Part shown: one piece after another, positions 24,666-63,426 of the stretch
How positions within the stretch are numbered: position 1 is the stretch's first letter
How the letters are laid out: the number at the start of each line of letters is the position of its first letter
Source of the DNA: an uncultured cyanobacterium
GTDB lineage: Bacteria; Cyanobacteriota; Cyanobacteriia; Cyanobacteriales; Microcystaceae
Direction: 5' to 3'
DNA length: 64,000 nucleotides
NCBI GenBank assembly: GCA_963807635.1
Contig: CAWEDJ010000039.1
Location: forward strand, 22,767-86,766
Made by a program: the position numbers and the translations under genes
Notes under the pieces: generated by a model
Told to the model about the DNA's origin: nothing
Databases searched by the model: none
What the model saw: the letters and a program-made list of their open reading frames with translations, nothing else

Positions 24666-25203
24666 GATCGCCCCTTTCCCTTTCATGACAAAATGATAAC
24701 CTTCTAGATCACAATAAAAAGCGATCGCCTTTTTTCCATATCACTTTTAATGCGGTTAAAATAGGGGAAGGTATTTCTGGATTAAAATTATGACGCAAAT
24801 TACAGTTGAACTTCCTGATGAATTGGCAATACAGATTCAATCACAAATTGCTCAGGGAGAGTTCAGTAACCTGGGCGAGTATGTTGTGTATCTATTGCAA
24901 AAAGAGCAATCACAGCTTCGTTCTACTCAGTTAGAAAAAATGTTTTTAGAAGGTCTAGATAGTGGAGAATTAATTGAAATAACCGATCAATGGTGGGAAC
25001 AAAAACGCCAAGAGATTTTATCATGAATCACCGAATTTTAAGAATCCTGCGTTATTGAGACTATTTTTTCATAATTAAAGTAGTTTATCTCTTTTAGACA
25101 CAAGTAATACTATTCAATTCAATAATGAGCCTGAGCAGAAGTCCATTTTAACCTAACGAGATCGCCCCTTTCCTCTTCACTTCTTAAAAAGCGATCGCCT
25201 TTT
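24666..25203 (+). repeat. Pair of HIP1-dyad direct repeats (24666-24733 and 25160-25203) flanking a ParD-like gene
   Basis: Both contain GATCGCCCCTTTCC and TAAAAAGCGATCGCCTTTT exactly. Confidence 0.85.
24790..25026 (+). CDS. ParD-like ribbon-helix-helix antitoxin (orphan)
   Basis: ITVELPDEL, GEFSNLGEYV and LEGLDSG motifs. The overlapping ATG at 25023 opens only 11 codons. Confidence 0.75.
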   Translation: MTQITVELPDELAIQIQSQIAQGEFSNLGEYVVYLLQKEQSQLRSTQLEKMFLEGLDSGELIEITDQWWEQKRQEILS

Positions 25204-25375
25204 AACTTTACAAAAAGTTCACAGATTAAGGTGTTCAATTTTTTTAGGGATAGCGTAACACACAAAATTGTATGCTCTTGTAAATAATCAAAAGGTGCAT
25301 GGCATTTCATTAATGTCTTCTACAAGATTTGACCGACAAATAAGCGCATCTTAACAATATTGAAAATCTGATCTA

Positions 25376-26398
25376 TCATTCTTGTTCAGAAGATGTGAAA
25401 AATTGAGACTCAGCAAGGGTATTTTCCTCATACCAATTATTCCATTTTTGTTCTTCTTTTTTGTATAAATCAGAATTAATAATTCGAGGACGTATCAACT
25501 GTATTTTATTATTGATTTCGTTTGAAAAAACAAACCGATGAGCATTTTCGACAATAAATCTTTGGAAATAAATGGCTGTATCTATCGAAATAATAGTCCC
25601 ACGTAATGGAGGTCTATAACCAATCTGAGTGTACATTAAATGTTGAGGACTAAGAGGGATAAAAATTTCGGTTCCCTTACTTCCCCATCCTCCATTAAAA
25701 TCATATTCACATTTTTGATTTTTTCCATAGTAATTAAGACGAGTGACTGGATTGTCACTAGTTAAAAAACTGAAGTTTTTAGGACTTTTAAGAATTGTCC
25801 ATTTTTGTTGATGAAGAGCTGATTTAGTATACGTAAGTAGACGCTGAATCGCAAATAGCCAAGCACTTCTTCCGATCAGAGCTTCATAGTGAACTAAAAC
25901 ATTATCATCCTGATTTTCAGTTTTATTTATGCGAATAGGGATTAATTCTTGATATTTTAAACTTTTATCAGATTCTTTAATTAAGTTTTTTTGAATATCG
26001 TTAGACATTTTTTTTATATTATCAAATGAATCATCTAGAGTTTTCATTAGATCAATACATCTCACTGGTGTTCGGACATCCTGAGCAGCTACAAAATCAA
26101 TTAACTCTATCCAATCAAGCTCAGAAAGATGTTGATCATTAACAGCCTTCGATATTGCTTTCTCTGCTGGAGCTTCAAACTCTGATGCGAACCATTTTTC
26201 AATTTCATCTGACTCTATAGAGTTGATATTTTTAGTATAAAAATTATGATAAATTGGAATTTTTGATATTGCTATTTGTTGCCAAATGGGAACTTTTTTG
26301 TGTGAAACAAGTATCCTATATGTCCATATTTTTTTATGTTGATTACTCCATTTTTTTTAGTACATTTTTGGGACGTAATGATTTTTTCTTTGAAGCAT
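25376..26398 (-). pseudogene. DUF4238 domain protein with premature in-frame TAA at codon 14
   Basis: MLQRKNHYVPKMY*KKW continues in frame into the 229-aa ORF with FLTSDNPV and FIPLSP. Confidence 0.8.
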
Positions 26399-26832
26399 AA
26401 TAACTTTCCAAAATTGTCGATTATAAAGTCTATGCGTCTATTCTAACAAATACTCATAATTAATATAACCAGAAGCAATATTAGCATTTGTAAAAATAAT
26501 AAATACAAGTGAGTAGGATAAAAGCGTGATTTTTTTTCATATTCATATTTCAAAAACTAAACAATCATAAACTAATATTTCCAATACTCTTAACAGAGGA
26601 TGCAATGAATATCAAGAAGAAATTACCTCAACTGATATTAAAAGTATATCCTCATCAAGGCTGATCGCCGATTCTTCTTACTTACCAAAACCTTATTCAT
26701 AGAAATTTTGCCTCTTTTAAAACCTGATCTTTAATAAAACGACTTAACCCCTTCTCTGTAACAATATCAACTTTACAACCTAAAAAATCCTGTAAATCCA
26801 TCAGCAATCCACCAGGAAACTAAGGAGAAATT

Positions 26833-28316
26833 CCACCTGTAAATAATTAGTTGATGATTAACAAGATTGAGCAGGAAACCAAAGAGAAGTCCAGCAATGA
26901 TTAAGTTCAGCTACCTTGAGAAAGCTTAAAGCCTTGCTACCATTCATGCTCCAACTTACACCCTTTTTTTTCTGACGATGACCAACGACCAAATCTACGC
27001 CTTTTTCAATGCGACCACTACCAATACTTTTACCGACTTTTCGCCGACCTTCGTAGTTGATGATTTCTGAGTGATGTTTCTCCAAATAACCAATAAGTTC
27101 CAACAAGACCTTGTTATTGCGAGCAACAACCTGATGTTTTAAGTAGTTGAGGGCAATATCAGTCTGACCATGCCATAATTGTGAGAGTAAAAACTTGACA
27201 TGATTGGATTTTTCTTCTTTGTTGAAAGCAATCATAGACATCAGATTTCGCACTTTTTTGCATAGGTGATACCAGTCTAAAATCACAACAGGTAAAACAC
27301 CAAAGATAGCCAAGAGGCGATGGCGAATGACTTTTGCCCCATCGGTGATAGCAACAATATTCAACGGTTTTGATTCCTTTTGATAGAGGTCGAGAATTCT
27401 CGCTCTAACGACTGTCGCAAGACTTATCGGTTCTTCTACCTCAGTATCAAAAGGAGAAACGAGATATTCAAATCCCCCTTTGGGTGTTTGCAACATTACT
27501 ACATCGGTAATGACGGCGGGAGTCTTATTCTTGGTGGTATCTGGACTTGGAGTATGGGCAGTAGATTCATTACGCGAATTACGCTCAGGCTTTTGTCCTT
27601 TGACTTGAATACCATCGTCAAATAGGAGAATTTCTGACTCCTCTACGTTATAAATCTCTACGCTTTTCTTTATCTGAATCTGCTCAGATGTGGTCGATTC
27701 TAATGATTCTTGTACAGTTTGTCGGATTTGCTGGCTATAGGTTTCGGCTTTCCCTTTCACTATTCCCCAAATGGTCTGGTCACTCAATAAGTTTTCTCCT
27801 GTTACTCGCTCCACTAATCCAGCCAAATTCTCATAACTGAGCCGATTGGCGTAATAACCGCATAATTCCTCTAATCTCTGACTCACAAATCTTTCCTGCA
27901 ATTGCTCCGATAACTGAAAATAGTTAACTTCTTTTTTATTCGTTTGATACTTTTGTAAGTAAAACTCAAACTGACCGTGTAATGTTTTTATACAGATTTT
28001 TCTCGTACCATTACACCACAAGTTTAGTTTTTTTTACTTTTTCCGTGAACTCGTTTTGTGCCTGCGCCAGTAAGGCTGCCTCTATTTCAGGCAATACTTT
28101 CTGTTTCATCTGTTCTACACCTCCTTCTATGTCATGTAAGCTTTGGGTTCCTATTTCCATTGCAAATGGGCTGTTTTGGCTGAGAATATTTCCCATTTCG
28201 TTACGAATCACGAATTCTACCGTCACTTTCATCCTTTTTACTCCTTTTTTTAAGACAATCTGTTTTTTTGCTTTCTCTTCATTTTACCTAATCATCAACT
28301 AATTATTTACAGGTAG
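26833..28316 (-). mobile_element. ISKra4/ISLre2-like insertion sequence
   Basis: 28-bp IRs C(C/T)ACCTGTAAATAATTAGTTGATGATTA and an 8-bp target duplication GAGAAATT (26825-26832, 28317-28324). Confidence 0.9.
26858..28232 (-). CDS. Transposase in two overlapping ORFs (73 aa + 387 aa) meeting near an A8 run
   Basis: DDGI, ITDGA, LDWYHL and IGSGRIEKG motifs. Confidence 0.85.
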
Positions 28317-28482
28317 GAGAAATTTGTTTTAGATCATAATCAATTAAAAAATCAACATCACTAGCTTCAGTTTCTTCTCCCCTCGCTACCGAGCCAAAAA
28401 CTCTTACATTAAAAGCTCCATGCTTGGCCGCGATCGCCAGAATATCCTGACGTTTTTCCTGTAGTAATTGACTCAGTTTCAT

Positions 28483-28692
28483 TTAAGCAACCTCCACATA
28501 TTCACAAAGAGAAACCGACTCAGGAATAGTCATCCCCTCTTCTTGCAATCCTTCTAAGTGAAATAGGATCGCTTCGGAAATTAACTCTTTTATCTCCTCC
28601 AACGATTCGCCAACCGCAACACATCCTGGCAAATCAGGAACATAAGCCCCATAGCTGGTTTCACCTTTTTCAATCACGATCGCATAACGCAT
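28483..28692 (-). CDS. hicB: HicB-family antitoxin
   Basis: YGAYVPDLPGCVAVGES motif. Confidence 0.9.
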   Translation of the reverse strand: MRYAIVIEKGETSYGAYVPDLPGCVAVGESLEEIKELISEAILFHLEGLQEEGMTIPESVSLCEYVEVA

Positions 28693-28694
28693 AA

Positions 28695-28898
28695 TTAAAT
28701 TTCTCCTTGAATTTGAACTTGTTGCCAGATTCTTTTTAGTGTACCGATAGGAATATCAACACTTAATTTGCCTGATACTATCACCGTCCCTGATTTTAAA
28801 GAATGTTTATATTGACGATGACTGCCTCGCGTTCGAGCTAAGTACCAACCATCAGCTTCCAAAGTTTTGATAACCTCTTTTACTTTCGTTTTATTCAA
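28695..28898 (-). CDS. hicA: HicA-family toxin
   Basis: DGWYLARTRGSHRQYKH and DIPIGTL motifs. Confidence 0.9.
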   Translation of the reverse strand: MNKTKVKEVIKTLEADGWYLARTRGSHRQYKHSLKSGTVIVSGKLSVDIPIGTLKRIWQQVQIQGEI

Positions 28899-28960
28899 TA
28901 ATCCAGTTAATTAGTCAAGTTATCATGCAAATTTGAATATCGTCAATACCGAAGATTAAG

Positions 28961-29016
28961 TTAAGAAGAAATAACCTCCACTTCCGCTAAAGGCACATCC
29001 TCCTTAACAGCGATCG
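28961..29016 (-). repeat. Displaced, diverged copy of the 3' end of the first clpB
   Basis: 48/56 ungapped identity to 29745-29800. Encodes IAVKEDVPLAEVEVISS*. Confidence 0.9.
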
Positions 29017-29049
29017 TCTCTCAATTTTAAAAGCGATCACTGAAAAATA

Positions 29050-29379
29050 TCAAGCAATAATTAATATTGAATCAGAATTATTAGAAAAATCCTCAATTCG
29101 TTCTTTATATTTTGTGATTAATCGCAAGAGAATATCACGATTACAATTCCCAATCCGAAGCCAGATTAATTTGGGTGGATGACCGTAAAGTAATGCCCGT
29201 TGATAAAAATCTGAATCTTTAGAAATCACAGTGAAATTATTATTTTTAGCATATTCCCAAATCCTTTCATTAGCAAATCCTTTCATCCCAATATCCCTGA
29301 CGTGAAGACTATTAGGAAATTCATTGATCAGTAAACGCGGCAATTTGGGGGATAAATTTTCATCAAACAGTAATTTCAT
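29050..29379 (-). CDS. DUF5615 PIN-like toxin
   Basis: MKLLFDENLS, ISKDSDF and PPKLIWLRIGN motifs. Confidence 0.88.
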   Translation of the reverse strand: MKLLFDENLSPKLPRLLINEFPNSLHVRDIGMKGFANERIWEYAKNNNFTVISKDSDFYQRALLYGHPPKLIWLRIGNCNRDILLRLITKYKERIEDFSNNSDSILIIA

Positions 29380-29599
29380 CGGGAATAATCATTAAATGGC
29401 GATCGCGGTCAGCAGCAAAAGCGAAACAGGCTTGTATATCTTCTAAAGTTAGATCGGGAAAATCGTCTAAAACGTCCTCAATGGTCATCCCTCCCCCCAA
29501 ATAATCTAAAACATCATTAACGGTAATCCGAGTATTAACAATACAGGGCTTTCCACTACAAATGGAAGGATTAATTGTAATTCGTTGACGATAATTCAT
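29363..29599 (-). CDS. DUF433 antitoxin
   Basis: ICSGKPCIVNTRITV...FPDLTLEDIQAC. Confidence 0.9.
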   Translation of the reverse strand: MNYRQRITINPSICSGKPCIVNTRITVNDVLDYLGGGMTIEDVLDDFPDLTLEDIQACFAFAADRDRHLMIIPDEITV

Positions 29600-29744
29600 C
29601 GTTTTTTCCTCAAGAAATTAACATAGGAAATTAATTTTTGATCGCCCCTCAATTTAAAAAGCGATCACGTTTTTTTCTGCTTACCAAAAACTTATTTATA
29701 GGGATTTCGCCTCTTTTTAATTGTGAGTTACCAATTTTGAGCTA

Positions 29745-32435
29745 TCAAGAAGATAAAACTTCCACTTCCACTAAAGGCACATCATCCTCAACCGCGATCG
29801 CGTCTTCTTGAACTTCCTCCTGCTTACCAAAAACCAAATGATTATCAACACAATCAATTAGAATTCTGTCCCCTGCCATAAACGCATTTTCCAGGATCTT
29901 CGTGGCAATAGGATTTTCTAACTCCCGTTGAATCGCCCGCTTTAACGGTCTGGCTCCATAGACAGGATCGTAACCCGCACTGACAATATGATCCAATGCT
30001 GATGCGGATAAAGATAAGGTGATCTTCTGCTCATCTAGAAGCTGTTCAATGCGTTTAATTTGTAAGACCACAATCCGACATAATTCATCCCGTTTTAAAG
30101 TATGGAAAATAATCAGATCATCAATACGATTTAGAAATTCAGGACGGAAATGTTTGCGGAGAGATTGCATCACTTGTTTCTGCATTTGATCATAATCCGA
30201 ATCATCCCCTGCCATCCCTAAAATATGGTCACTGCCAATATTACTGGTCATCACAATAATCGTATTGCGAAAATCCACCACTCGACCTTGGGAATCCGTA
30301 ATTCTGCCATCATCTAATACTTGCAAGAGAATATTAAACACATCTAAATGGGCTTTTTCCACCTCATCCAATAGCACCACCGAATAGGGACGACGACGCA
30401 CGGCTTCCGATAATTGCCCCCCTTCTTCATAGCCCACATAACCTGGAGGCGCACCAATCAGACGGGAAACCGCGTGTTTTTCCATATATTCGGACATATC
30501 AATCCGCACCATCGCCTCTTCACTGTCAAAGAGAAAAGATGCTAATGCTCTCGCTAATTCCGTTTTGCCTACGCCCGTTGGCCCCATGAACAGAAAAGAA
30601 CCAATGGGACGATTGGGATCTTTCATGCCTGCTCTGGCGCGACGAATGGCGGCGGAAACGGCGATTACGGCTTCCTGTTGACCGATAACCCTTTGATGTA
30701 AATGACCTTCGAGTTGCAGAAGTTTTTGTCGTTCGGAGGCTAGGAGGCGATTAAGGGGAATACCTGTCCAACCTGCCACAATTTCCGCAATATCGGATTC
30801 AGTGACTTGTTCGCGTAAAAGGGTTTTTCCTTCTGCTTGAATTTCTAATAGCTTGGTTTCCTTTTCTTCAATCGCCGTTTGCAGGACTTCGAGCTTACCG
30901 TATTTCAGTTGAGCCGCTTTATTGAGATCATAATCCCGCTCTGCTTTTTCCACTTGACGACGAATTTGTTCTTCTTCTTCTTTGAGAGTATTAATTTCCT
31001 CTAACATTTGTTTTTCCGAAAGCCATTGTCCCGAAAGTTCTTGTTGCTTGGTTTCTAATTCTTCAATTTCTGATTGAATTTTTTCGAGACGTTCCTTAGA
31101 CGATTTATCCGTTCCTAAGCCTGAGCGTTTTTCTTCTCCTTCTAGGGATAATTTCTCCATTTGCAGTTGCATTAGTCGCCGATCAATATCTTCTAATTCA
31201 ACGGGCTTGGAGGTAATTTCCATTTTTAAACGGGCCGCCGCTTCATCGACTAAATCGATCGCCTTATCGGGCAAAAAGCGATCGCTGATATAACGATGGG
31301 ACAAAGTTGCCGCCGCGACTAACGCAGAATCGGTAATTTTTACGCCATGATGGACTTCGTAACGTTCCTTAAGTCCCCGTAAAATAGAGATAGCATCTTC
31401 TACACTGGGTTGTTTGACATAAACTTGCTGAAAACGACGCTCTAGGGCAGGATCTTTCTCAATATTTTTACGATATTCATCTAAAGTGGTTGCACCGATA
31501 CAACGCAATTCACCCCGTGCCAACATCGGTTTCAGCAAATTACCCGCATCCATCGAGCCTTCACGACCACCCGCCCCAACAACGGTATGGACTTCATCAA
31601 TGAATAGAATAATCTGTCCATCGGAATTCGTGACTTCCTTCATCACCGATCGCAGTCTTTCTTCAAATTCCCCCCGATATTTTGCCCCCGCAATCAAACT
31701 GCCCATATCGAGGGAAATTAACTGCCGATTTTTCAAGGATTCAGGCACATCCCCATTAATAATCCTTTGAGCCAATCCTTCCGCGATCGCCGTTTTACCG
31801 ACTCCTGGTTCCCCAATCAAGACAGGATTATTTTTAGAACGACGAGACAACACCTGGATCACCCGCCGAATCTCTTCATCTCTGCCAATCACCGGATCTA
31901 ATTTTCCCTGTCTCGCCTGTTCGGTCAGATCTCGCCCATATTTTTCCAACGCCTCATATTTTTCTTCCTGATTAGGTTCCGTGACTTTTTGACTACCCCG
32001 AATGGCTTTAATCGCCACTTCCAAATCCTGGGGATCGAGATTAAAGGTGAGCAAAAGTTTACGTCCCACCCGCTCATCTTCGGCAAATCCGACCAATATA
32101 TGTTCAACGGAAATGAATTTGTCATCCCAGCTTTCCTTAGCCGCATCCGCGCGATCGAGCATCACATCCAAACTGCGACCCAAATAGAGTTGATCAATAA
32201 AACTCTGTTTCGCCTGACGATTAGTAAATGCCTCTAGTTGTTGCTGAAAACTGGTCACATCAATGGTTGCCTTCTGGAAAATCCGCAAAGCTAACCCCTT
32301 TTCCTGTTCGAGGAGAGCCAGGACAACGTGTTCTACTTCTAGGGTTTGATTTTTGAAACGACGGGCGACTTCTTGGGATTTTACGATCGCGTCCCAGGCT
32401 TGTTCGGTAAATTTGCTTGGATCGGTGGGTTGCAT
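29745..32435 (-). CDS. clpB: ATP-dependent chaperone ClpB (896-aa paralogue)
   Basis: Two Walker A motifs ([16 protein letters not shown]), M-domain coiled coil, GARPL. Confidence 0.97.
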
Positions 32436-32618
32436 TGGGATTGGTCTAAGACTTAGGCGTTAGGTAATCTACTCCTAACATTGTAGAAGGGGTCGGAGTC
32501 ATTTTTCTCGGATCGGGGATTCCTTAGCCGCTATTAAAAAAAGTTTCATGGAGACTTGCTATCGTCCTTAAAAGACGCTACAATGTCCTTGTAGTTAACT
32601 AGGTTATATTCAAGGTCT

Positions 32619-33638: not shown

Positions 33639-33838
33639 ATTTTATAGCTGATTAGATCGCCTACTTTTAGGTCTGCTCACTTTCGGGTGCGTTAAGCATA
33701 ATCACTTTGGAATAGGTGATCGCGTTGCAAGAGTTGATCTTTTGACGAGCGCGATCGCCTTTATATTGGGATAAAGTGCGATCACTTTCAGTCATCATGT
33801 AAAATAATTACATAACAATCATCTATAAAAAATAAACC

Positions 33839-34060
33839 ATGATTCAATCTGTTGAAGCAATTATTGATCCAGAAGGAAACGTACATTTGCTCGAATCGGT
33901 TAAACTTTCCACATCGAAAAAGGCGATCGTCACCATTCTTGAAGACAATCCGATAATTTCTATCTCCGAAACAGCCCTATTAAGTGAAGCAAGTTTGGCA
34001 GAAGATTGGTTAAGACCTGAAGAGGATGAGGCATGGTCGCACCTACAACTAGCTCAATAA
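33839..34060 (+). CDS. Putative antitoxin of MazF-like toxin
   Basis: SETALLSEASLAEDWLRPEEDEAW, overlaps the toxin gene. Confidence 0.75.
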   Translation: MIQSVEAIIDPEGNVHLLESVKLSTSKKAIVTILEDNPIISISETALLSEASLAEDWLRPEEDEAWSHLQLAQ

Positions 34061-34371
34061 TTTTAATACCCTTTCCTTTTTCTGACCTCTCACAATCTAA
34101 ACTCCGTCCCGCCGTTGTGTTAGCTAATGCAGGAAAAGAAGACTGGATACTCTGTCAAATAACTAGCAAATCCTATGCCGATTTACAATCTATTAAACTA
34201 ACCGATGATGATTTTGCTAATGGTTCTTTAAAATTAGTTAGCTATGCTCGTCCAGGTAAATTATTTACAGCAAACAGTAGCCTAATCGTATCTAAAGTTG
34301 GTGAATTGAAACAAGAAAAATTGCTGGAAATTATTAACACAGTGGTGAGCTTATTGAGAAGATGCTTATAA
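34033..34371 (+). CDS. PemK/MazF-family toxin
   Basis: PFPFSDLSQSKLRPAVVL and LCQITS motifs. Confidence 0.88.
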   Translation: MVAPTTSSIILIPFPFSDLSQSKLRPAVVLANAGKEDWILCQITSKSYADLQSIKLTDDDFANGSLKLVSYARPGKLFTANSSLIVSKVGELKQEKLLEIINTVVSLLRRCL

Positions 34372-34450
34372 AAAAACTCTTATCTCTAAGGCGATCGCGT
34401 TTTAGTCTTATTGTAAAATAGCAATATTAAAAGTATTTTGTAAATCCATC

Positions 34451-34669
34451 ATGACAGAACTAATAGAACAAGCAATTTCAAAGCTCAAAACCCTGCCATC
34501 CGACCAACAAGAAGCGATCGCGTCCATCATTCTAGAAGAAATTGAAGAGGAAAAACGATGGGATCAATCCTTTGCTCGTTCACCTGATTTATTAGCCAAA
34601 CTTGCCGCAGAAGCCATGACTGAATACCGAGAAGGCAAAACTCAAGAACTCGATCCAGAAACCTTGTGA
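34451..34669 (+). CDS. Putative antitoxin
   Basis: 72-aa acidic ORF overlapping the downstream toxin (GTGA). Confidence 0.75.
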   Translation: MTELIEQAISKLKTLPSDQQEAIASIILEEIEEEKRWDQSFARSPDLLAKLAAEAMTEYREGKTQELDPETL

Positions 34670-34935
34670 AATCCCAAACAACTATTCAGTTTCGTAAACA
34701 ATTTGCCGCTCTTCCTAAACAAACTCAAGAGCAAACCCGCAAAGCATATCGGCAATTTAAAAATGCTCCCAATCATCCTAGTTTACGATTTAAAAAAGTC
34801 CATCCTCAATTACCTATTTATTCCGCTCGAATTAACAAAGATTATCGAGTGGTTGGTCAATTAGAGAAAAATACTGTAATCTGGTTTTGGATTGGCTCCC
34901 ATGCTGAATATGATTTACTCTTGAATCAGTTTTAA
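34666..34935 (+). CDS. RelE/ParE-superfamily toxin
   Basis: HPSLRFKKV, YSARINKDYR and WFWIGSHAEYD motifs. Confidence 0.85.
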   Translation: MKSQTTIQFRKQFAALPKQTQEQTRKAYRQFKNAPNHPSLRFKKVHPQLPIYSARINKDYRVVGQLEKNTVIWFWIGSHAEYDLLLNQF

Positions 34936-35184
34936 GGCGATCGCGTTTGTATTGCGTTAAAGTGCGATCGCCGATTTTATGAATCCAATTCACGACCCAT
35001 CACAATGGCTTTAGATTGGAAGACTGGGAGTGAAAATGATAGGGGAGAAGTATAGAAGCGATCGCAATTTTTTCAATTCTTGGACAGATTTATTAAGAAT
35101 CCCAGACGAAAAGTCAGTGAAATCCCCAAAAGCAAGTTACCCTATAGGGGAAATAATCTTGCCAACTAGCCAAATTAGGAATTT

Positions 35185-36612: not shown

Positions 36613-36641
36613 AATTTAAAAAACTAGACATAAAATAGAAC

Positions 36642-39336: not shown

Positions 39337-39440
39337 TTAAGCTATTACAAATTTAGATTGCATAACGATTTTGTTGAAAGTTTTGTAACAAGGGGCTTAA
39401 GCCCCTTGCCTGTGTGCGTTTTAGATAATTAACAGCTTAT
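39337..39440 (-). repeat. Dispersed ~105-bp repeat, copy 2, with perfect 20-bp palindrome CAAGGGGCTTAAGCCCCTTG (39389-39408)
   Basis: Matches 2227-2330. The palindrome recurs at 45389-45408. Confidence 0.8.
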
Positions 39441-42293: not shown

Positions 42294-44168
42294 ATGTCAA
42301 TTTCTAGCCGCCCCTACAAAAGTCGTCTTTTTAATTTCGTCAATCGTCGATCGCTGCAATTCCGCGATCGCATCGGGGAAACCTTTCGTCATCTCAAAGT
42401 CGCGGCGGAGTGGGGAGCGCAACTGTTGATTTCTCCCTTACATTGGATTTTTCAACCGAGGAACTGGACAGGGGAAGTCTTAGGAACAGCCTCTTCTAAC
42501 AAAGCCTTACCCCCAGCCGAAATCTATTTATCCGATCCGCCTGTGGATCAACCCCTCGAAAAAATCTTGACCGCGATCGTCACACGGTTTGAATTGCCCG
42601 ATTCTTCGTCTTTTACGGCAACTTTACACGACCTTAAGCCAGAGAATTTACCCCGAAAAAAAGAAATTGTCCTTTCCTCCCAGTTTTTTCAACAAATCCA
42701 GCAAGACCTAGAAAATCCTGCTCTCTCTCAAAATTTAGCCCTTCCTCCCGCGATCGCACAGCGCCACTTCGTGATCGCGCCCAAGTCTCTAAACTCCCAT
42801 CCTTTGGGAAATCTGGTCAGCCAGATAAAAAATGTCTTTTCTCCCACCAAGGATCTGGTGATTCGGGGGATTTCTTGCGTCATTGAAAATCGTCAATTAG
42901 TTCTGACTACCGCCGACAACGAGATTCTAGATGTCTTGTCCCTAGATCAACAAAATCTTCTGAAGCAATCTATTCGGGCAGAAATGGCTAATTATTGGTA
43001 TGAAAGACGCTTGCAATGGTCAATCTCCCAAAAAATGCTCGGATTTATTCCTTTGGTGAATGAGCAAACGGAAAAAGTGTTGCCCCCTGTCCAATTACTC
43101 TGGCAGACCTTACATTGGTTAGAAAGTCAAAGTTTTCGACCGAAATTACCCCAATTAACTCAATCTGCTTTGGTTCCTGCGACCTCTTTGACCATTGGGG
43201 GCAATGCTCTTATTCAAAAATTAGACCAACGGGTTGCCGCCTTAGAAAGTCAGGAAAATAAATTCGGTCAGCAACTTTTTCAGCAATTTAATCAGGGGTT
43301 ACAGATCGTCCGCCATTCTGCTGTGGTTGAATCTTCCCTCGAAAAAACGGGACAAATTATCCAAAAAATTGATTTTCCTCATCAATTACAGAAATTAAAC
43401 GATTCTCCCCAACTAAGCCAGCTAAAACGCCTCAATGCCGAATTTTTAGAACGCATTTCAGGACAATTAACCCCAACGAATCTCGGTAACGCGCTCACGT
43501 CCTTTAAAAACCCAGAAAATTCATTAGTCACGCCCAACGCCATTGAATCCATTCCCCCCGATCCCTTTCAAATTCAAGTTTTGATTCAAGCCGCGATCGC
43601 CTACTTCTTTGGACAAAAATCGGCTAATGCCCATCTGTCAGGACAAAACGGCCAATCTTTTGTCGGTTCAAGGGATAGCATTGATGATCCCTGGCTCACT
43701 TGGGAAGATCTATTTGTCGAAAGAAGTACGGAAATTAATGTAGTAACTTCACCCGAAACAAGCCCATCGCTTCCTTTAAGAGAGCTACCAAAACGGACTG
43801 CTCTTAAATCCAGTCAATCGAGTAAAAATCAGAAAAAATCTCAGAAAAAATCCAAAATTACTCGTTCAACAACTTCAAAATCTTCTAAACTCTCCTTAAA
43901 AACTTCAACTCTCACCGAGACTTCGGTTTCCTCTCAGTTAGATACAATCCTTGAAGAAGCGATCGAAACAGTTTTAATGACCACCAATTCCCAGGAAACG
44001 GGCTTAGAAGCGGCTCCTGAGTGGATTGAAACAGAAGCCAGGGTAATGGGTTATCACAAGCACCCTTTAGAGCAAATTTTGGAATTGTTAGATATATTCG
44101 TACTTTGGCTGGAAGAAAATCTCAAAAAAATTTGGTCTTGGCTACGGAACCGTTTAGAGAGTATTTGA
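42294..44168 (+). CDS. Hypothetical protein (cyanobacterial)
   Basis: 624-aa HIP1-rich ORF with C-terminal WIETEA..MGYHKHPLEQIL. Confidence 0.75.
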   Translation: MSISSRPYKSRLFNFVNRRSLQFRDRIGETFRHLKVAAEWGAQLLISPLHWIFQPRNWTGEVLGTASSNKALPPAEIYLSDPPVDQPLEKILTAIVTRFELPDSSSFTATLHDLKPENLPRKKEIVLSSQFFQQIQQDLENPALSQNLALPPAIAQRHFVIAPKSLNSHPLGNLVSQIKNVFSPTKDLVIRGISCVIENRQLVLTTADNEILDVLSLDQQNLLKQSIRAEMANYWYERRLQWSISQKMLGFIPLVNEQTEKVLPPVQLLWQTLHWLESQSFRPKLPQLTQSALVPATSLTIGGNALIQKLDQRVAALESQENKFGQQLFQQFNQGLQIVRHSAVVESSLEKTGQIIQKIDFPHQLQKLNDSPQLSQLKRLNAEFLERISGQLTPTNLGNALTSFKNPENSLVTPNAIESIPPDPFQIQVLIQAAIAYFFGQKSANAHLSGQNGQSFVGSRDSIDDPWLTWEDLFVERSTEINVVTSPETSPSLPLRELPKRTALKSSQSSKNQKKSQKKSKITRSTTSKSSKLSLKTSTLTETSVSSQLDTILEEAIETVLMTTNSQETGLEAAPEWIETEARVMGYHKHPLEQILELLDIFVLWLEENLKKIWSWLRNRLESI

Positions 44169-45385: not shown

Positions 45386-45388
45386 TAA

Positions 45389-45408
45389 CAAGGGGCTTAA
45401 GCCCCTTG
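45389..45408. repeat. Palindrome CAAGGGGCTTAAGCCCCTTG
   Basis: Identical to 39389-39408. Confidence 0.85.
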
Positions 45409-45449
45409 CCCAGATGAATGTTAGATTACAAACACATTATTAACCTTCC

Positions 45450-54668: not shown

Positions 54669-54686
54669 GCGGGTTAATGGGTTAAA

Positions 54687-55859
<1,173 letters not shown>

Positions 55860-56022
55860 TCACTGACATTACAATAATTTATCAGGTCTGGGGACTCTCG
55901 GTAACATTGATGACCATCTTTATTTTGAGACTCGGTTCCATTCGTTGAATTTCGTTAATGAGCCGTTAATGGCTAATTAAGGAGACGTTAAGGCAGAATC
56001 GCGATCGCAATGTGACCCACTG

Positions 56023-56108
56023 CTTAAAGGTTCAGACGACCCATCGACAAAAATAGTGTCATCTTGTTTGTAGTCTTCGTGTGGCATCGATTTCGCGATC
56101 GCCGTCTC
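56023..56108 (-). repeat. Displaced, degenerate copy of the 3' region of the second clpB
   Basis: 62/86 ungapped identity to 60845-60930. Reads ETAIAKSMPHEDYKQDDTIFVD. Confidence 0.85.
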
Positions 56109-56196
56109 AACTCTTATCAAAAAGCGATTGTTTTTTACCATTCAGTCTAAACCAAGATCAATGAGGCTTAGAGTTTTAACAATTGCAATTACAAAC

Positions 56197-56469
56197 TTAC
56201 GGGAAAACTCGATAAATTTCTCGACGGTGGGCTACCCTCTGACAGATAATTTACTAATTTTTAGAATCAAATGTCATGCCAATTCTATAATCGCCAACTC
56301 GAATTTTATATTTGTCATTATATCCTTTCATTTTACTAATATAACCCAGGGCAAAAGGATTGTCTGAGTTGAGTTCTTCAAACACAATAACTTCTACCCG
56401 ACTCTGAATACTTTTAGGTAGTGCGGCTAACTCCTTCAAAAATCGTTTAGTATACTTAATTTCCCACAT
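56197..56469 (-). pseudogene. RelE-family toxin truncated by in-frame TAG TAA
   Basis: KIRVGDYRI...SKN**IICQRVAHRREIYRVFP*. Confidence 0.85.
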
Positions 56470-56668
56470 TTTGTGATTTTAAAGACTGATAATAGGAGTA
56501 AGCAATATCTCCAGAGAGTTGTTCATCATTTTCAACTTCTTCCATCAATTTTGCTAATCCAAAATCTTCTAAAATTTTTTCGATTTGGTTATAAATGGCA
56601 ATAGGAATCTGAACTGCTAAGGGCTTTTGTTCTTCATCTAAAACGTACTGCTTAGGAATTGGAAGCAT
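56456..56668 (-). CDS. RelB-like antitoxin
   Basis: 70-aa acidic ORF overlapping the toxin start. Confidence 0.75.
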   Translation of the reverse strand: MLPIPKQYVLDEEQKPLAVQIPIAIYNQIEKILEDFGLAKLMEEVENDEQLSGDIAYSYYQSLKSQNVGN

Positions 56669-56766
56669 TTGTATAATCTCAACTATTGTTTTAAGTTAAC
56701 TTAAATTATTATTATAAAGCTGTTCAAAATAACTAACTGATTGTAACATATCTCGCTAAAATCTAA

Positions 56767-56802
56767 ATCTAATAAAACATTCGTATCAAATAAGACCTTC
56801 AT
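56767..56802 (-). pseudogene. N-terminal remnant of a PIN toxin
   Basis: MKVLFDTNVLLD overlaps the upstream stop (ATGA), after which PIN similarity is lost. Confidence 0.65.
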
Positions 56803-57023
56803 TCCTTTTGCAAAAGCCTTGCTTCTAAAAGGGATTTAACCTCTTCATCCGTAGGTGCAGGCGCATCAGTCTTCGCAATGCCCACTAAACTTGACGCGAT
56901 ACCTTTATGTTGGATCGCTAATGAAGGTTTTGAGCGCAGGGATTTCATTAAGATATTGATTAATTCCCAACGATCATCTTCCGAAAGCGTTAATACTTGT
57001 TCGTGAAGTTTTTGAAAATTCAT
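56799..57023 (-). CDS. Putative antitoxin (orphaned)
   Basis: 74-aa ORF with GIAKTDAPAPTDEEV, coupled to the PIN remnant. Confidence 0.65.
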   Translation of the reverse strand: MNFQKLHEQVLTLSEDDRWELINILMKSLRSKPSLAIQHKGIASSLVGIAKTDAPAPTDEEVKSLLEARLLQKE

Positions 57024-57344
57024 ACCGTTTAAGCCATAGGATAAACTTACATGGGATTGTAACAAATTGTCTTATGTCACCTCAAGCGATAATGATGATA
57101 TTGCGCTGAAACTTAGCGATCGCAGTTTTGTTATTGATAATTGAAAAGCGATCGCTGAAAGTACGACCATGCAGATCGCCCTCATTGTCGGTTAAGTCGA
57201 GAAATCTGAATGTTATCCGAGTTAGGGTCAATCAATTTTTGTCAAAAGGGATGCTGGTAATGTTTTAGACCTGTGGCTCGTATTTCTGGAAGACAGCTAG
57301 TCTATTCGTTTTGAGGTGTCTTATCCACGGATTCAGGACACTAC

Positions 57345-57537
57345 AAAATAACAATACCCGCATCTATGGCTGTGCGATCCATGTTGACATTATTGGTGAC
57401 AAAATATGGATACAACATGACGGCACCGAAGACGCGATCGCCGATGAGCTTATAGCCAAGGGGTACCTAGTAAAGATGTCATTCTTGCCTACCATTCTCC
57501 ATACCTCCGTCAATATACAGAATTTGCTGTAGGATAA
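57345..57537 (+). pseudogene. xisI: XisI-family fragment (5' truncated, frameshifted)
   Basis: RIYGCAIHVDIIGDKIWIQHDGTED..., then in a shifted frame VILAYHSPYLRQYTEFAVG*. Confidence 0.8.
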
Positions 57538-57542
57538 CAACC

Positions 57543-58865
57543 ATGAGAATCGACCGATTAGAGATAAAAAACTTCAAAAAGTTCTCTAACTATAGCCTTG
57601 ACCTACACCCCCAATTCACCTTGCTAATTGGAGATAATGGTACAGGTAAAACCTCTATTCTCGATGCCCTGGCGATCGCCGCAGGAGTTTGGCTGGTCAA
57701 CTCTCCTGACACTACCCTCAACTATAGCCGACGTAATATTTTACGTTCAGAAATCCGTTTAGAGGCTATCTCTATCGATAGCATTACCCAATTTATCGAA
57801 CGCACACCCACCGAAATTAAAGCGATCGGCACAATCAACGATCAACCTGTGCAATGGTTGCGACAAATTAAAGAGAATAGTTCTCGAACTTCCAATACAG
57901 AAGCAAAAGAATCTCTAGATATCATCTCTAAGTTGTTTAAACAGGTCGCAGCAGGCGATCAAATCTGGCTACCTGTCATGGCTTACTACGGAGCAGGGCG
58001 AGCGGGGCTACCCTCCAATCAACGCGCTGCTATAACCTACACCAGTCCATCTCGCCGTTGGGATGCTTTTTATGATTGTTTTGAAGAACGGATTAGCACC
58101 TCTCGCCTAAATACTTGGTTTCAAAAAGAAGCGATCGCCTCAGTCAAAAAATAGGGACAAATGCGATCAGGTTACAAGGTTGTGAAGTTCGCCATCTTGC
58201 GCTGCATTCCTAACGCTAATGATCTTTGGTTTGATGGCGATCGTGGTGAAATTGCCATTGCGATCAATGGTCAGCCCCAACCCTTTAGCAATCTGAGTGC
58301 AGGACAAAAAATGATGGTAGCGCTAATCGCCGATCTCGCCATCAAGATTGTTACTCAAAATGCTGCTTTTCTGCCCGAAGAAATAGATACAGACAATCAA
58401 GCATTACCGCAAATCTTGCAGCAAACATCGGGATTAGTGATGATTGATGAAATTGATGTGCATCTACATCCCAAATGGCAACGTCAAGTCGTAGACGATC
58501 TCAAAACCACTTTTCCCGCGATCCAGTTTGTCTGTACTACCCATTCACCGATAATTACTAGTGAAGTTGAAGCTAAATCTATTAGATTTCTTGGATATGA
58601 GGCAGAAAATGGTGACATTATTTCTACGATTCCATCAGAGTCTTATGGTCTAGATGCAAATCGAGTCTTAGACGAGCTAATGGGAGCGTCAGAACGAAAC
58701 AAAGAAGTCACACAAAATCTTCATAAAATGTTTCAGCTAATTGATGATGAAGATTTTGATATGGCTCGGCAAGCGATGATTCCACTGATCACAAAAATTG
58801 GCGATCGTGACCCTGAAATTACTCGCGCTCAAACTTTGATCAAATTTTTGGAAGGCAAAGAATGA
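57543..58865 (+). pseudogene. ABC/AAA ATPase, Septu PtuA-like, with in-frame TAG at 58152
   Basis: GDNGTGKT, YYGAGR, LSAGQK, IDEIDVHLHPKWQ and TTHSP motifs. The two ORFs are in the same frame. Confidence 0.82.
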
Positions 58866-60557
58866 GAAATATTCAAAAAACTACAGAGCCGCAATCATTA
58901 CAGCAAATTTCGTTCAAACCCGCTACAAGTATGGTAACATGAAAAAAACTTAAAAAAATTAATGAGATATGGCAGCATATTCGCTAGATTTACGCCAAAG
59001 AATACTAACGGCATGGCAAAACCAAGAAAATACTCAAAGAGGTTTAGCAAAACGATTTAAGGTTAGCTTATCTTTCGTTCGCGATTTTTTACGTCGGTAT
59101 CGACAAACAAATGAAATAGCACCCAAACCCCAAGGGGGAGATCGCCGTTCAAAGATAAAGGGTGAAGACGAAGAATTATTAAAAAAAATAGTTGCAGAAC
59201 AAAATGATATATATTTACGAGAAATCCAAGAAAAATTGCAACAAGAGAAAGGAATAGAAGTAAGTATATCGGGGGTAAGTCGAACTCTTACACGTTTAGA
59301 ATTAGGGCGTAAAAAAAAAACATTAGTAGCAAGTGAGCAAGGCACAGAAAAGGTTAAAGAATCGCGTTATGAATTTAGACGTTGGCTAGAGACGATAGAT
59401 ATAAGAAACCTGATATTCATTGATGAGACGGGTCTTAATCTAGCGATGGTAAGACTCTATGCGCGTTGTCTGGGAGGAGAAAGGGTTTATGATGAGCGTC
59501 CAGGAAATAAAGGACAAAACATCACTTTAATTGGGGCGATGAGTGATGAAGGTTTGATTGCCTCAATGACCTTTCCTGGCAGTCTAAATACCGATAGTTT
59601 TTTAGTCTTTATTGAGCAAGTATTATTACCTCAGTTATGGGCAGGGGCAATTGTCGTGATGGATAATTTGTCTGTACATTACGCTACCGTCACTACAAAT
59701 CTGATTGAATCTGTTGGAGCCAAGGTTAAATTTTTACCTTCCTATTCGCCAGATTTATCACCAATTGAGTTGTGTTGGTCTAAATTAAAAGAAATTATTC
59801 GCTCTGCTAAAGCTCGAACAATCGAGGCTCTTGACGAAGCTATTACTAATGCGATCAATACCATTACTGATGAAAATGCTCTTGATTGGTTCCAACATTG
59901 TGGTCTCTACTTTGAGCCTTTGAGATAGCTTTTTCGTGGTGCGTTTGATCGGAAATTGCTGTAACCCAGCATCGATGCAATACCGATTCTAATTACGAAA
60001 ATTATGCTAAGAAGGATGATCTACGAAAAAGTTTAGTAGCTGAACAACGTGGAATTTGTTGTTACTGTATGCAGAGGATTCGTCCTAATCTAGAAAGTAT
60101 GAAAATCGAGCATTGGCAATGTCAAGATAAATATCCAAAACGACAGTTAGACTATGATAATCTGCTGGGAGCTTGTCCCGGCGGTACAGGAAAATCCAAA
60201 CGTGATCAGCATTGTGACACCAGAAAAGGAAATGATGACATATCATTCAATCCAGCAGATCCATTTCATGATGTTGAAAGCAAATTACAGTTTCTAGGAG
60301 ATGGAACCATTAAATCAAATGATGTGCAATTCGATCAAGAGATTAATGATGTTCTGAACTTAAATGAAAGGTCGTTAAATCGCAACCGTAAAGCAGTATT
60401 AAATGCTCTACAGCAAAGCTTTATGAGAGGCAATCCTTCAAAGATAGCTATAGAAAAAGAACTTCGCAAATGGAATGGTGACAGTGGAGAAGAACTTGAA
60501 CCATTTTGTCAAGTTGTTATTTATTACCTCCGTAAGAAACTCAAGAGAATGTCATGA
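58862..60557 (+). pseudogene. HNH endonuclease, PtuB/TIGR02646-like, interrupted by IS630
   Basis: MRNIQKTTEPQSL|TQHR...EQRGICCYCMQRI...IEHW...LDYDNLLGAC...HCDTRKG. Confidence 0.85.
58901..59961 (+). mobile_element. IS630-family element, copy 3 (transposase 58969-59928)
   Basis: TA duplication and the same IRs as the other copies. Confidence 0.95.
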
Positions 60558-60772
60558 ATAGAACCTCTGAACAAGCCTTTGAAAATGCGATCGCCGATGT
60601 TTTATTAGTGCGATCACCGATCTTATAGGTTAGTTTGATAACAGGAAACCCAACGTTCCAAAGGTAAAAATGAGCGCGATCTATTTGTGATGGAAAAGGA
60701 TGATCGCAGTTTGTTGTTTGTAATTAAAAAGGGCGATCGCCGCTTAATTTTGAGTCAATTTGAAGGAGAAAT

Positions 60773-60797
60773 AAAAAGGGCTTATGGTATTAAGCCC
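60773..60797 (-). terminator. Intrinsic terminator of the second clpB
   Basis: GGGCTTA-N6-TAAGCCC stem followed by T5 on the minus strand. Confidence 0.7.
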
Positions 60798-60807
60798 CTG
60801 CAAAAAT

Positions 60808-63426
60808 TTAAGCAGTCAGTAACTCATTAGAAAGATGCTTGAAACTTAAACGTTCAGCTTCAACATCCACAAAAATTGTGTCGCCCTGTTTATATTGCCC
60901 GCGTAAAATTGATTTCGCGATCGCGGTTTCGAGATAACGTTGAATAGCCCGTTTTAAAGGCCGCGCACCATAGATAGGATCATAACCAATTTCTGCAAGG
61001 AAATCTAAGGCACTTTCTGATAATTTGAGGGATAACTTTTGTTCCGTTAAACGAGATTCCAAACGTTGAACTTGAATTTTAACAATCTCCCGTAATTGCG
61101 TTTTTTGTAACCCATGAAAAATAATCGTTTCATCCACCCGATTGAGGAATTCAGGACGGAAATTTGCCTGCATCACTTCCATGACTCGCGATCGCATTTC
61201 CTCATATTTAGAATCATCCCCCGCCACATCTAAAATGTATTGGGAACCGAGATTACTGGTCATAATAATAATGGTATTTTTGAAATCCACCACATGACCC
61301 TGGGCATCGGTTAAACGCCCATCATCGAGGATTTGCAACATCACATTAAAGACATCTCCGTGAGCTTTTTCAATTTCATCAAAGAGAATAACCGAATAGG
61401 GACGACGACGAATCGCTTCCGTTAATTGCCCGCCTTCTTCATAGCCCACATATCCTGGAGGCGCACCCATTAAGCGAGAAACAGTATGTTTTTCCATGTA
61501 TTCAGACATATCAATGCGGACGATCGCCTCTTCCGTATCAAAGAGATTTTGGGCTAAAGCCTTGGCTAATTCCGTTTTCCCGACCCCCGTTGGGCCTAGG
61601 AAAATAAAACTTGCTGTCGGACGATTTGGATCGGATAAACCCGCCCGCGATCGTTGGATGGCTTCAGCAACGGCGGTAACCGCTTCTTCTTGGCCAATAA
61701 CGCGATCGTGTAATTCATCCTCTAAATGTAAGAGTTTTTCCTTCTCAGATTCCACTAATTTACTAATAGGAATACCCGTCCATTTAGCAATAATTTCGGC
61801 AATATCTGACTCTAGAACTTCTTCTCGTAAAAGAGATTTTCCAGAGGTTTGTTTATCTGCTAATTGGATTTCAAATTCCTTAACTTTTCGTTGGAGATCC
61901 GTTAAAGTTCCATAGCGTAATTCTGCCGCTTTATTGAGGTCATAATCCCGTTCGGCTTGTTGAATTTCTAGATTGACTTGATCGATTTTTTCTTTGACAG
62001 TACGAATTTGATCAATGACTTCTTTTTCCGATTGCCATTGTCCATTCAATTTTGACTGTTCTTCCTTGAGATTCGCTAGTTCTTGTTCAATTTTTTCTAG
62101 CCGTTCCTGAGAAGCCACATCATTATCTTTTTGTAAAGACAAACGCTCCATTTCTAATTGGAGAACTTTACGGTCAACTTCATCCAATTCCTCTGGTTTA
62201 GAGGTGATTTCCATCTTTAATTTAGCCGCAGATTCATCCACTAAATCAATGGCTTTATCGGGCAAAAAGCGATCGCTGATATATCGATTGGATAAAACGG
62301 CAGCCGCCACTAAGGCACTATCGGCAATTTTAACCCCGTGATGAACTTCATAGCGTTCCTTCAACCCCCGCAGGATCGAGATAGTATCAATCACATTGGG
62401 TTCATCCACTAAAACTGGTTGAAAACGCCGTTCTAGGGCCGCATCTTTTTCGATATATTTGCGATATTCATCCAAGGTTGTTGCGCCAATACAATGCAGT
62501 TCTCCCCGCGCTAACATGGGTTTTAATAAATTACCTGCATCCATTGCACCTTCGGCCGCACCCGCCCCCACAACGGTATGAATTTCATCAATAAAGAGAA
62601 TAATATTGCCCTGACTTTCGGTAACTTCTTTAAGGACGGCTTTCAGTCTTTCTTCAAATTCACCGCGATATTTTGCTCCCGCAATTAAAGCTCCCATATC
62701 TAAAGCAATTAGTTTGCGATCGCGTAAAGAATCGGGGACATCACGGTTAATAATTCGTTGGGCTAAACCTTCCACAATCGCAGTTTTACCGACTCCAGGT
62801 TCCCCAATTAAAACAGGATTATTTTTGGTACGGCGAGACAAAATTTGAATAGTACGGCGAATTTCATCATCCCGCCCAATCACGGGATCAACCTTTCCTT
62901 CACGGGCCATTTGGGTTAAGTCCCGCCCATATTTTTCAAGGGATTCATATTTACCTTCGGGATTTTGATCAGTCACTTTTTGACTACCTCTTACTTGTGT
63001 AATAATATTTTTTAATTGAATTTCTGTGAGTCCAAATTCTTGAAATAAATTTTTTCCAAAGTGATCATCTTTAGCATAGGCTAAAATGAGGTGTTCAATG
63101 GAAATAAAATCATCTTTAAACTCTTTACGAAAAGCTTCGGCTCGGTCTAATAGCGTGTCTAAACTACGGCCTAAATAAATCGATTCACTCGGATTCGCGA
63201 TTTTGGGTTGACTGTTGATAAACGCTTCTACGCGATCGCGGAATTTGGGAACACTGACATTGGCTTTATTGAGGATACTAATGGCCAGCCCCTCTTCTTC
63301 TAATAGGGCTTTGAGGAGGTGTTCGCTTTCAATTTGTTGTTGTTTATGTTGTTTCGCAATGTCGGGAGTCCGTACAAGGGCTTCCCAAGCTTTTTCGGTG
63401 AATTGGTTGGGATTGGTGGGTTGCAT
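60808..63426 (-). CDS. clpB: ATP-dependent chaperone ClpB (872-aa paralogue)
   Basis: Start set at [11 protein letters not shown]. Two AAA+ modules and an M-domain. Confidence 0.97.

Follow-up and report, generated by a model that had tools for sequence, protein, structure and literature searches.

Toxin-antitoxin and defence cassettes interleaved with displaced gene ends and HIP1 repeats behind clpB and other genes of a Microcystaceae cyanobacterium

Displaced gene ends behind two clpB genes

The DNA analysed here (the window) is a stretch of 64,000 nucleotides from contig CAWEDJ010000039.1 of an uncultured Microcystaceae cyanobacterium (assembly GCA_963807635.1; 4.03 Mb, 107 contigs, 93.7% complete). 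It carries two clpB paralogues, each of them intact and followed by accessory cassettes and then by a displaced tail, which we define as a copy of a gene's own 3' end lying behind accessory cassettes downstream of the intact gene. The initial annotation had described this layout, which we confirmed for both paralogues, and had proposed that clpB acts as a homologous anchor and the motif HIP1 as the second junction of an integron-like cassette system. The stated hyper-abundance of HIP1 was borne out: the window has 81 sites vs 0.47 in shuffled sequence, and the genome has 4758 (1.18 per kb). Genomes G001-G005 and G014 were compared at the sequence level, and wider sets of family and order genomes served for searches with the clpB2 and ileS tails; G000 denotes the genome that contains the window, and C-numbers its contigs. 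The clpB1 array has the following features.

29745..32435, minus strand: clpB1, intact, 896 aa (TIGR03346 above the NCBIfam cut-off)
29794..29801, no strand: HIP1, 56 nt before the clpB1 stop, where displaced tail 1 begins (motif scan)
29677..29720, minus strand: relic of an earlier joint, made up of the end of MNT, the start of HEPN and 15 nt of clpB1, directly behind the clpB1 stop
29640..29670, minus strand: paired HIP1-like repeat, left edge of the DUF433/DUF5615 cassette (score 23, P 0.0015)
29050..29599, minus strand: DUF433 plus DUF5615 (PIN-like) toxin-antitoxin (TA) cassette (Pfam)
29010..29040, minus strand: paired HIP1-like repeat, right edge of the same cassette, its second site merged with the clpB1 HIP1
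28961..29017, minus strand: displaced clpB1 tail 1, the last 18 codons, decayed (87% over 54 nt)
28483..28898, minus strand: hicA-hicB (Pfam)
26691..28482, minus strand: MNT antitoxin gene split by an ISKra4-like insertion sequence (IS) of 1492 nt at about 26823-28314 (profile searches)
26610..26690, minus strand: displaced clpB1 tail 2, which begins about 89 nt before the stop and not at HIP1 (69% over 67 nt)
25376..26065, minus strand: DUF4238 gene, partial (Pfam E 8e-10)
24721..25198, plus strand: ParD-type antitoxin gene (24790-25026) flanked by two HIP1-centred direct repeats (repeat P 0.006)

Displaced copies had been said to begin at an internal GCGATCGC. This is true of tail 1, the last 54-57 nt of clpB1, which starts at the gene's HIP1; tail 2, better kept in locus L140 (82.6% over 92 nt), starts 30 nt upstream of that HIP1. 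Taken together, the displaced clpB1 copies begin at -55, -89 and about -120 to -135 from the stop and hence have no fixed start. Because the sequence after tail 1 matches that behind intact clpB1 in G003 (88.5% over 288 nt), tail 1 is best read as the former gene end and the DUF433/DUF5615 cassette as a newer, proximal module; HIP1 is present at the tail-1 joint in both parental sequences. The relic directly behind clpB1 is the same joint as that at 26690 (83% over 36 nt), and is 85% identical over 67 nt to L140. The HEPN partner of MNT at 26691-28482, which we name from the G004 translation as it has no family match, is cut off after a few codons in the window. The ParE partner of the window ParD has been lost, the toxin being kept in G001 and G004.

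Alignment of the clpB-downstream regions, a check put forward in the initial annotation, revealed that slot content varies among congeners and among lake strains. The gene directly behind clpB1 differs from that of the window in 6/6 genomes (G001-G005, G014): it is hicA in G003, hicB in G005, MNT in G004 and other genes in G001, G002 and G014. Five metagenome contigs gave MNT three times, hicB once and the G014-type gene once, and 2/5 carried tail copies of their own. We also examined four sequencing runs (X1, X2, X6, X7) as contigs, which drop rare forms; each run contained under a quarter of the sequence words. In X1, X2 and X7 clpB1 was joined to MNT, and X7 also had a clpB1-hicB joint; the IS-free form of MNT was seen in X1 and X2. 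Besides the clpB1-to-MNT allele, X2 contained a contig having the outer frame of the window with other sequence (about 500 nt, by subtraction from the record length) in place of the DUF433/DUF5615 cassette. The breakpoints of this allele are at HIP1-like edges, 29016 in the right paired repeat and 29671 adjoining the left one. As the displaced copies are present in other genomes and in a contig of an independent run, they are not an assembly artefact. Sliding identity to G004 along clpB1 was 96.5-99.5% over the final 600 nt and 93.5-97.9% further upstream, a weak hint of recent tail exchange that we did not use as evidence.

The DUF433/DUF5615 cassette has matches of 91% and 89% at other loci of G001 and G002. 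The G001 copy lies between two exact paired-HIP1 repeats, with two exact HIP1 at its right edge. In G002 the cassette is behind pepP and is accompanied by a 165-178-nt displaced pepP tail. The displaced tail therefore belongs to the target gene and not to the cassette. The pepP tail does not start at HIP1, so HIP1 is not needed as the second joint. In L003 (G014) and L141 the clpB1 slot is filled by a 597-aa DACNG/DACNH/DAC protein, likely defence cargo, and in L139 the HIP1-like site of hicB holds a 24-nt insert.

The clpB2 array has the same plan.

60808..63540, minus strand: clpB2, intact, with HIP1 at 60917-60924 (TIGR03346 above cut-off)
60701..60740, minus strand: paired HIP1(-like) repeat behind clpB2, proximal edge
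57311..60557, plus strand: decayed Septu-like defence pair, PtuAB (Pfam, PADLOC, NCBIfam)
57543-58154 and 58161-58865, plus strand: PtuA, broken into two open reading frames (ORFs)
58897-59969, plus strand: IS630 within the PtuAB cassette
60069-60557, plus strand: PtuB-like HNH, antisense to clpB2 and the sole HNH in the window
57116..57155, no strand: paired HIP1 repeat, distal edge of the PtuAB cassette (P 0.0025 paired with 60733)
56254..57065, minus strand: 88-aa ORF without a family, relB-like antitoxin and truncated relE/parE toxin (Pfam)
56023..56108, minus strand: displaced clpB2 piece (72% over 86 nt) spanning -122 to -37 relative to the stop and containing HIP1 at 56095-56102
54687..55838, minus strand: UDP-sulfoquinovose synthase-like (sqdB-like) gene, distal flank of the array (NF041015 E 1e-142, under cut-off)

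The PtuAB cassette, which also includes an XisI fragment, was not found in G001-G005. The proximal paired repeat is present in G003 and G004, where different sequence follows, and G004 synteny with the window ends at 57163, at the distal paired HIP1. Paired HIP1 or HIP1-like repeats precede both clpB1 tail 1 and the clpB2 piece. The distal part of the slot (ORF, relBE, clpB2 piece and sqdB-like gene) is common to G004 at 93-95%; the counterpart of 56254-57065 is 95% identical and has a toxin of 90 aa. G003 and G004 have an extra addiction module, which in G004 precedes the clpB2 piece; it is absent from the window, and the gap ends in a common ATCGCT. The displaced clpB2 3' end of the initial annotation is real, with HIP1 6 nt inside its edge, but it stops 37 nt before the stop codon; its ratio of non-synonymous to synonymous differences (pN/pS) is 0.29. 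As the tail search found the piece in only two of 60 other family genomes, G003 and G004 (where contig breaks mask its linkage to clpB2), it represents one old event and clpB2 is no hotspot.

At least five cassettes had been described as bracketed by HIP1-based direct repeats. We chose nine cassette-edge pairs by eye and compared them with random intergenic HIP1 pairs, including those of a cassette not tied to clpB:

33751..34971, plus strand: mazF-like and ParE-like pairs between HIP1 sites (Pfam; outer repeat P 0.0008)

Four of the nine were clearly extended repeats (P<0.01: the ParD orphan, DUF433/DUF5615, the outer mazEF plus ParE-like pair, and PtuAB), one was marginal (P=0.03) and four were no better than chance.

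Scars elsewhere in the genome

A genome-wide search for duplicated 3' ends was then the more general form of the question. The last 250 nt of 2178 ORFs of >=200 codons, multi-copy genes having been filtered beforehand, were compared with same-strand non-genic sequence within 15 kb. Copies of 3' ends were found downstream of 23/2178 genes vs 9 upstream, whereas the controls gave 6 down and 12 up for 5' ends, and 5 down and 3 up for gene middles. Curation left 12 genes with 15 junctions, 5 of these at HIP1. Both clpB genes are included, and the 10 other scarred genes, together with the single old event at clpB2, leave the claim that clpB is a special anchor unsupported. We take names such as gatA, carB, ileS, pepP, MarC, SDR, GGDEF, TPR and ABC from reading the translations. 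The tails of these 12 unrelated targets are 33-365 nt long, and the cargo includes yefM-yoeB, DUF29, hicAB, Uma2 and PD-T4-2. Five of the 23 genes were dropped without a detailed look (C1, an IS; C18, C55 and C61, short hits; C93, a paralogue) and six others (C16, C26, C34, C36, C85, C89) turned out on inspection to be repeat domains or tandem paralogues. The 5'-end copies upstream of 12 genes, considered as mirror scars, were mostly pieces of tandem paralogues. At L068 (G000:C105:56300-61800) a TPR-like gene is followed by three tails (88, 88 and 78%) and about nine small TA-like ORFs.

One possible source of such tails would be a tandem duplication that arose locally on a single chromosome and then decayed neutrally, the cassettes being later insertions. 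A few tails look as this predicts, with near-neutral pN/pS (clpB1 tail 1, 1.02; C41, 0.89; TPR copy 2, 0.71). Pooled over 14 tail pairs, however, 84 synonymous and 82 non-synonymous differences gave pS 0.27 and pN 0.075 (p 1e-15), a pN/pS of about 0.28, with low values at gatA (0.15), SDR (0.05), carB (0.13) and G002 pepP (0.14). This synonymous bias argues that most tails diverged as working alleles and hence came by recombination between lineages, which fits the homologous anchor of the initial annotation. It rules out local duplication at most loci, although single short tails may have arisen in this way; modules common to different genera also speak against it. Local duplication is very improbable, the least likely of the accounts we considered. 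The copies sit behind their own genes, where congeners are 80-97% identical, and long one-sided homology is thus available.

Arrays at ileS and gatA

The ileS scar recurs in 11 other genomes. Extra copies of the IleS end were found in 6/70 other family genomes and 6/110 order genomes (5 of these behind the gene) with the last 45 residues of IleS as the query, which undercounts, as it missed the copy in G000; a second IleS match in G127 was not counted since it lies 220 kb away. In G003, G004 and G014 the ileS arrays have about four tails each. The copies begin at -44 to -262 from the stop with at least 10 distinct start points, and divergence tends to be greatest in the tail farthest from the gene, though the order is not monotonic. 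Modules of these arrays are common across genera at 94-97%: G004 and G014, members of different genera, have a Uma2-plus-tail module in common at 97% identity over 830 nt, whereas their ileS ends are 82-87% identical. At L102, L103, L113 and L116 (ileS; G004, G003, G014) the modules are pentapeptide, YoeB-type TA, Uma2, PD-T4-2-like and DUF29. As a model locus ileS is preferable to clpB.

The TA and Uma2 modules at ileS stand in opposite order in G003 and G004, that is, circularly permuted, which raised the possibility that the arrays are spread chiefly by excised circles of tail plus cassette that insert through one crossover (Campbell-type insertion-duplication). The units always read from tail to cargo, and the extended direct repeats at four of nine cassette edges would suit excision. 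A first illegitimate join would still be needed to form the circle, the 33-57-nt tails are poor substrates, and transformation takes up linear DNA. The gatA locus is also difficult for circles. In G003 and G004 gatA is followed by Uma2, a 238-nt spacer and the next gene, whereas in G000 a 365-nt tail and two genes follow Uma2 and the spacer is lost. A clean single crossover would not remove the spacer; its loss is expected of anchor-plus-illegitimate joins. The four runs, which are contigs that drop rare forms, showed no joint of a circle. We consider circles quite unlikely as the origin of the arrays, although they are likely a real second-stage process of reshuffling.

Since G001 also has gatA-Uma2, the gatA gain is distal, and the fixed polarity of the initial annotation fails there. 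The anchoring side thus appears to vary, new cargo being proximal at clpB1 and distal at gatA.

Searches for integrases and homing endonucleases

Regenerated 3' ends are typical of integrative elements, and the arrays might be relics of integrase islands, of integron cassettes (clusters of attC sites lacking integrases, CALIN) or of homing-endonuclease elements that regenerate the target gene end. In fungal mitochondria C-terminal duplications flank homing endonucleases (PMC6279837), and both the gatA and the ileS arrays contain Uma2 nucleases. Among the 60 window ORFs scanned there was no tyrosine or serine recombinase, in agreement with the initial annotation; DDE transposases (IS630, ISKra4-like and others) are present, though. 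Elsewhere in the genome there were six tyrosine-recombinase matches, with PF00589 on C28 and C93 only. The best IntI match in the whole assembly scored 48.3 bits against a cut-off of 265 (TIGR02249). A home-made, unvalidated scan for attC arms (RYYYAAC..GTTRRRY) found no attC-like pair in the two clpB arrays and none genome-wide. The clpB1 array had no homing endonuclease, and in the clpB2 array the only candidate was the PtuB-like HNH, a defence nuclease antisense to clpB2. Integrase models fail because no IntI exceeded the cut-off, the rough attC scan was empty, the clpB1 and ileS copies begin at varied points and not at a fixed att core per gene, and the 12 targets are unrelated, with tails of various lengths. 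For the window these explanations are largely refuted, and overall we rate them as very improbable. The C28 cluster (G000:C28:87800-112000) contains tyrosine recombinase proteins that, with one neighbouring ORF, look foreign; it is possibly a mobile element or binning contamination.

HIP1 at the joints

A joint was scored as using HIP1 if an exact HIP1 started -3 to +6 nt from the gene-side edge. Five of the 15 G000 junctions did so, where 0.32-0.57 were expected from gene-specific nulls (P 7e-6 to 6e-5; 1.2% for a random edge); two others were one mismatch from HIP1 and one had HIP1 on the cargo side. Three further junctions had none, and with the ileS joints of other genomes the total was 8/32. 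HIP1 is a favoured joint, not a requirement. The second-junction role first assigned to HIP1 therefore stands as an enrichment beyond density in G000, but not for the 24/32 joints that lack an exact HIP1.

The strongest rival explanation arises from this bias: a host enzyme may nick or cut HIP1 between GCG and ATCGC and so start the join, the arrays being an integrase-free integron analogue and the non-HIP1 joints background. The G003 and G132 ileS joints start exactly at ATCGC and one G000 joint at ATCGCC, and both ends of the X2 cassette swap are at HIP1-like sites. An element within the window would also fit such cutting.

42750..42778, no strand: 21-nt SDR5-like insertion splitting HIP1, in frame in ORF 42294-44168

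The insertion is absent from the G003 orthologue, which has a single HIP1, and its exact bond is ambiguous within GATC in the alignment. The element has 24 genome sites vs 0 for a reversed control, several in frame; a second window site is at 15683, and relatives occur in 4/70 family genomes (G001, G003, G004, G014). It was likened to SDR5 of Nostocaceae (Elhai 2008, described in PMC4390886, PMC5861425 and PMC13756078) by its length and target; SDR5 is reported to insert between HIP1 bases 3 and 4 (PMC4390886). The element is separate from the cassettes and occurs outside Nostocaceae, where according to PMC5861425 no SDR5 was found. HIP1-linked site-specific recombination has been cited (PMC4390886), and methylated HIP1 raises integration and transformation (bioRxiv 2024.09.10.611283; PMC13756078).

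The arrangement of HIP1 is likewise strongly non-random at short range. Intergenic neighbours 26-35 nt apart numbered 75 vs 17.6 expected, and those at 8-19 nt numbered 1 vs 24. After this near-absence and peak come a trough at 44-55 nt and a second rise at about 56-70 nt, a rule that holds within genes and in pooled loci of other genomes; PMC5861425 treats kb-scale HIP1 periodicity, and its available part has no short-range rule. HIP1 was on both flanks of 17/213 small gene pairs vs 35/1293 long genes, and paired HIP1 flanks were found for 28 of the former vs 59 of the latter, a contrast that is only rough because the flanks of long genes hold more coding sequence. Hairpin folds of the paired repeats were dropped as evidence, since they follow from the palindrome alone.

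Besides the joints without HIP1, several of which pass over a HIP1 only 11-33 nt away, G175 has the scar with no HIP1 at the joint and only 813 HIP1 in 4.4 Mb (six-fold fewer). No candidate enzyme was identified, and a gel shift gave no HIP1-binding complex (cited in PMC13756078). We thus regard a HIP1-cutting enzyme as an unlikely cause of the arrays. A broader proposal, doubtful but worth stating, is that cyanobacteria encode a HIP1-directed cut-and-join activity that also drops 21-24-nt mini-elements into GCG^ATCGC, HIP1 and the 30-nt paired sites being a phylum-wide attachment site. If so, genomes would capture TA and defence cassettes, pile them up behind housekeeping genes and exchange them across genera with no integrase, and HIP1 would have a function, a matter open for 30 years (PMC5861425, PMC13756078).

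Proposed origin of the arrays

The explanation we favour, and think probable, is that imported DNA joins by one-sided homology plus microhomology between slot alleles, after which the tail repeats recombine. The 3' end of a conserved gene would mark a variable slot holding different small cassettes in different strains. DNA with another slot allele, presumably the donor, would be taken up, probably by transformation, and would recombine homologously at a single side, within the conserved gene or else within the conserved flank that lies behind the slot. The opposite end would be joined at a short microhomology. If a cassette end were joined to a point 30-365 nt inside the gene end of the other allele, both cassettes would be kept, the gene would remain intact and one tail would be stranded between the cassettes. 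Being GC-rich and palindromic, occurring about once every kb and clustering at the edges of cassettes, HIP1 would be the single microhomology used most often, but three of four joins use other sequence. In a second step the tail copies and the paired-HIP1 repeats of about 30 nt would act as portable homology by which modules pop out, swap, reorder and move between species; the pattern is seen in the arrays and the mechanism is our suggestion. Cargo would later decay by IS insertions and loss of toxins.

These steps resemble homology-facilitated illegitimate recombination (HFIR), which uses 3-10 nt segments and is RecA-dependent (PMC6382021); the same dependence may hold here. The genome has a ComEC-family gene with an open frame. 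Microhomology was seen where both parents are known, namely at clpB1 tail 1 (HIP1) and at the ATCGCT-ended deletion.

Several points weigh against this explanation. Exact donor and recipient parents were not found for most joints, so that microhomology is demonstrated for few. Classical HFIR deletes recipient DNA and does not duplicate it; duplication needs a join inside the homologous gene. The model does not account for the bias for 3' over 5' ends, nor does it supply the two non-homologous joins by which a cassette would first reach a new gene. The ileS joints of other genomes had HIP1 in 3/14 cases, with P 0.017 for a wide null and 0.25 for a narrow null. Finally, the pN/pS of clpB1 tail 1 shows decay rather than allelic divergence.

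Relation to known systems

The arrays are like HFIR in having one homologous side and in that no dedicated recombinase was found; a microhomology join, seen at few joints, and a competent host would be further parallels. They differ in that a gene end is duplicated repeatedly and that HIP1 supplies a quarter of the joins, and our case is drawn from genomes rather than transformants. Excision of a 352-bp HIP1-flanked segment at smtB (Gupta 1993, cited in PMC13756078) and HIP1-linked plasmid recombination (Akiyama 1998, cited in PMC13756078 and PMC4390886) likewise have joints inside GCGATCGC between otherwise unrelated DNA; those were a single deletion and a plasmid cointegrate, whereas here TA and defence cassettes are gained and swapped and the joint share is measured. 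Integrons and CALINs (Cury 2016; PMC4889954) also have tandem, small, promoter-poor TA or defence cassettes that are reordered, the oldest usually distal, and tandem cassettes changing order and content were found here. In the present arrays no IntI above the cut-off and, by the rough scan, no attC-like sites were found, and the separators are host-gene tails and paired HIP1. They work like an integron array plus HFIR, and by the features tested are neither integron nor CALIN. The fungal mitochondrial homing ORFs share an intact gene, inserted ORFs and a displaced C-terminal copy; here the cargo is mostly non-nuclease TA pairs and varies freely.

Hence the integron-like accumulating system first envisaged stands insofar as arrays build up and reshuffle without an integrase, but no dedicated machine was found. 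The initial annotation had named three observations that would overturn it (HIP1 at joints only at its density, invariant islands, and a dedicated integrase or att site), and we found none of these. The arrays are known recombination chemistry in a new form, real, general and quantifiable, and not a dedicated system. The literature searched, mostly non-subscription and with supplements excluded, mentioned neither arrays punctuated by tails nor cassette joints biased towards HIP1.

Displaced tails provide a natural, base-resolved record of recombination joints in which HIP1 use can be counted directly. With HIP1 at a quarter of joints overall and a third in G000, the question becomes testable by transformation. 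In addition, the arrays illustrate how defence and TA genes build up and cross genera without mobile-element machinery. New defence genes can easily be spotted by the scar: cargo of the Septu-like, PD-T4-2, DUF262 and DAC-domain kinds surfaced unprompted.

Other features of the window

At 6847-10506 a 2.1-kb DUF772/DDE transposase is duplicated in tandem (98-99%), one copy being split. IS630 is present in three identical copies (44322, 52091 and 58897), one of which breaks a PIN-like gene after mutS2. A split GmrSD/DUF262 gene with a DUF5655 end at 18677-20768 fits the PADLOC Orf5/HEC-06 models. A repeat of about 100 nt whose centre is palindromic is dispersed over 39338-39440, 2227-2331, 24608-24653 and 45360-45440, and relative to the window the same repeat is an insertion in the G004 parD gene.

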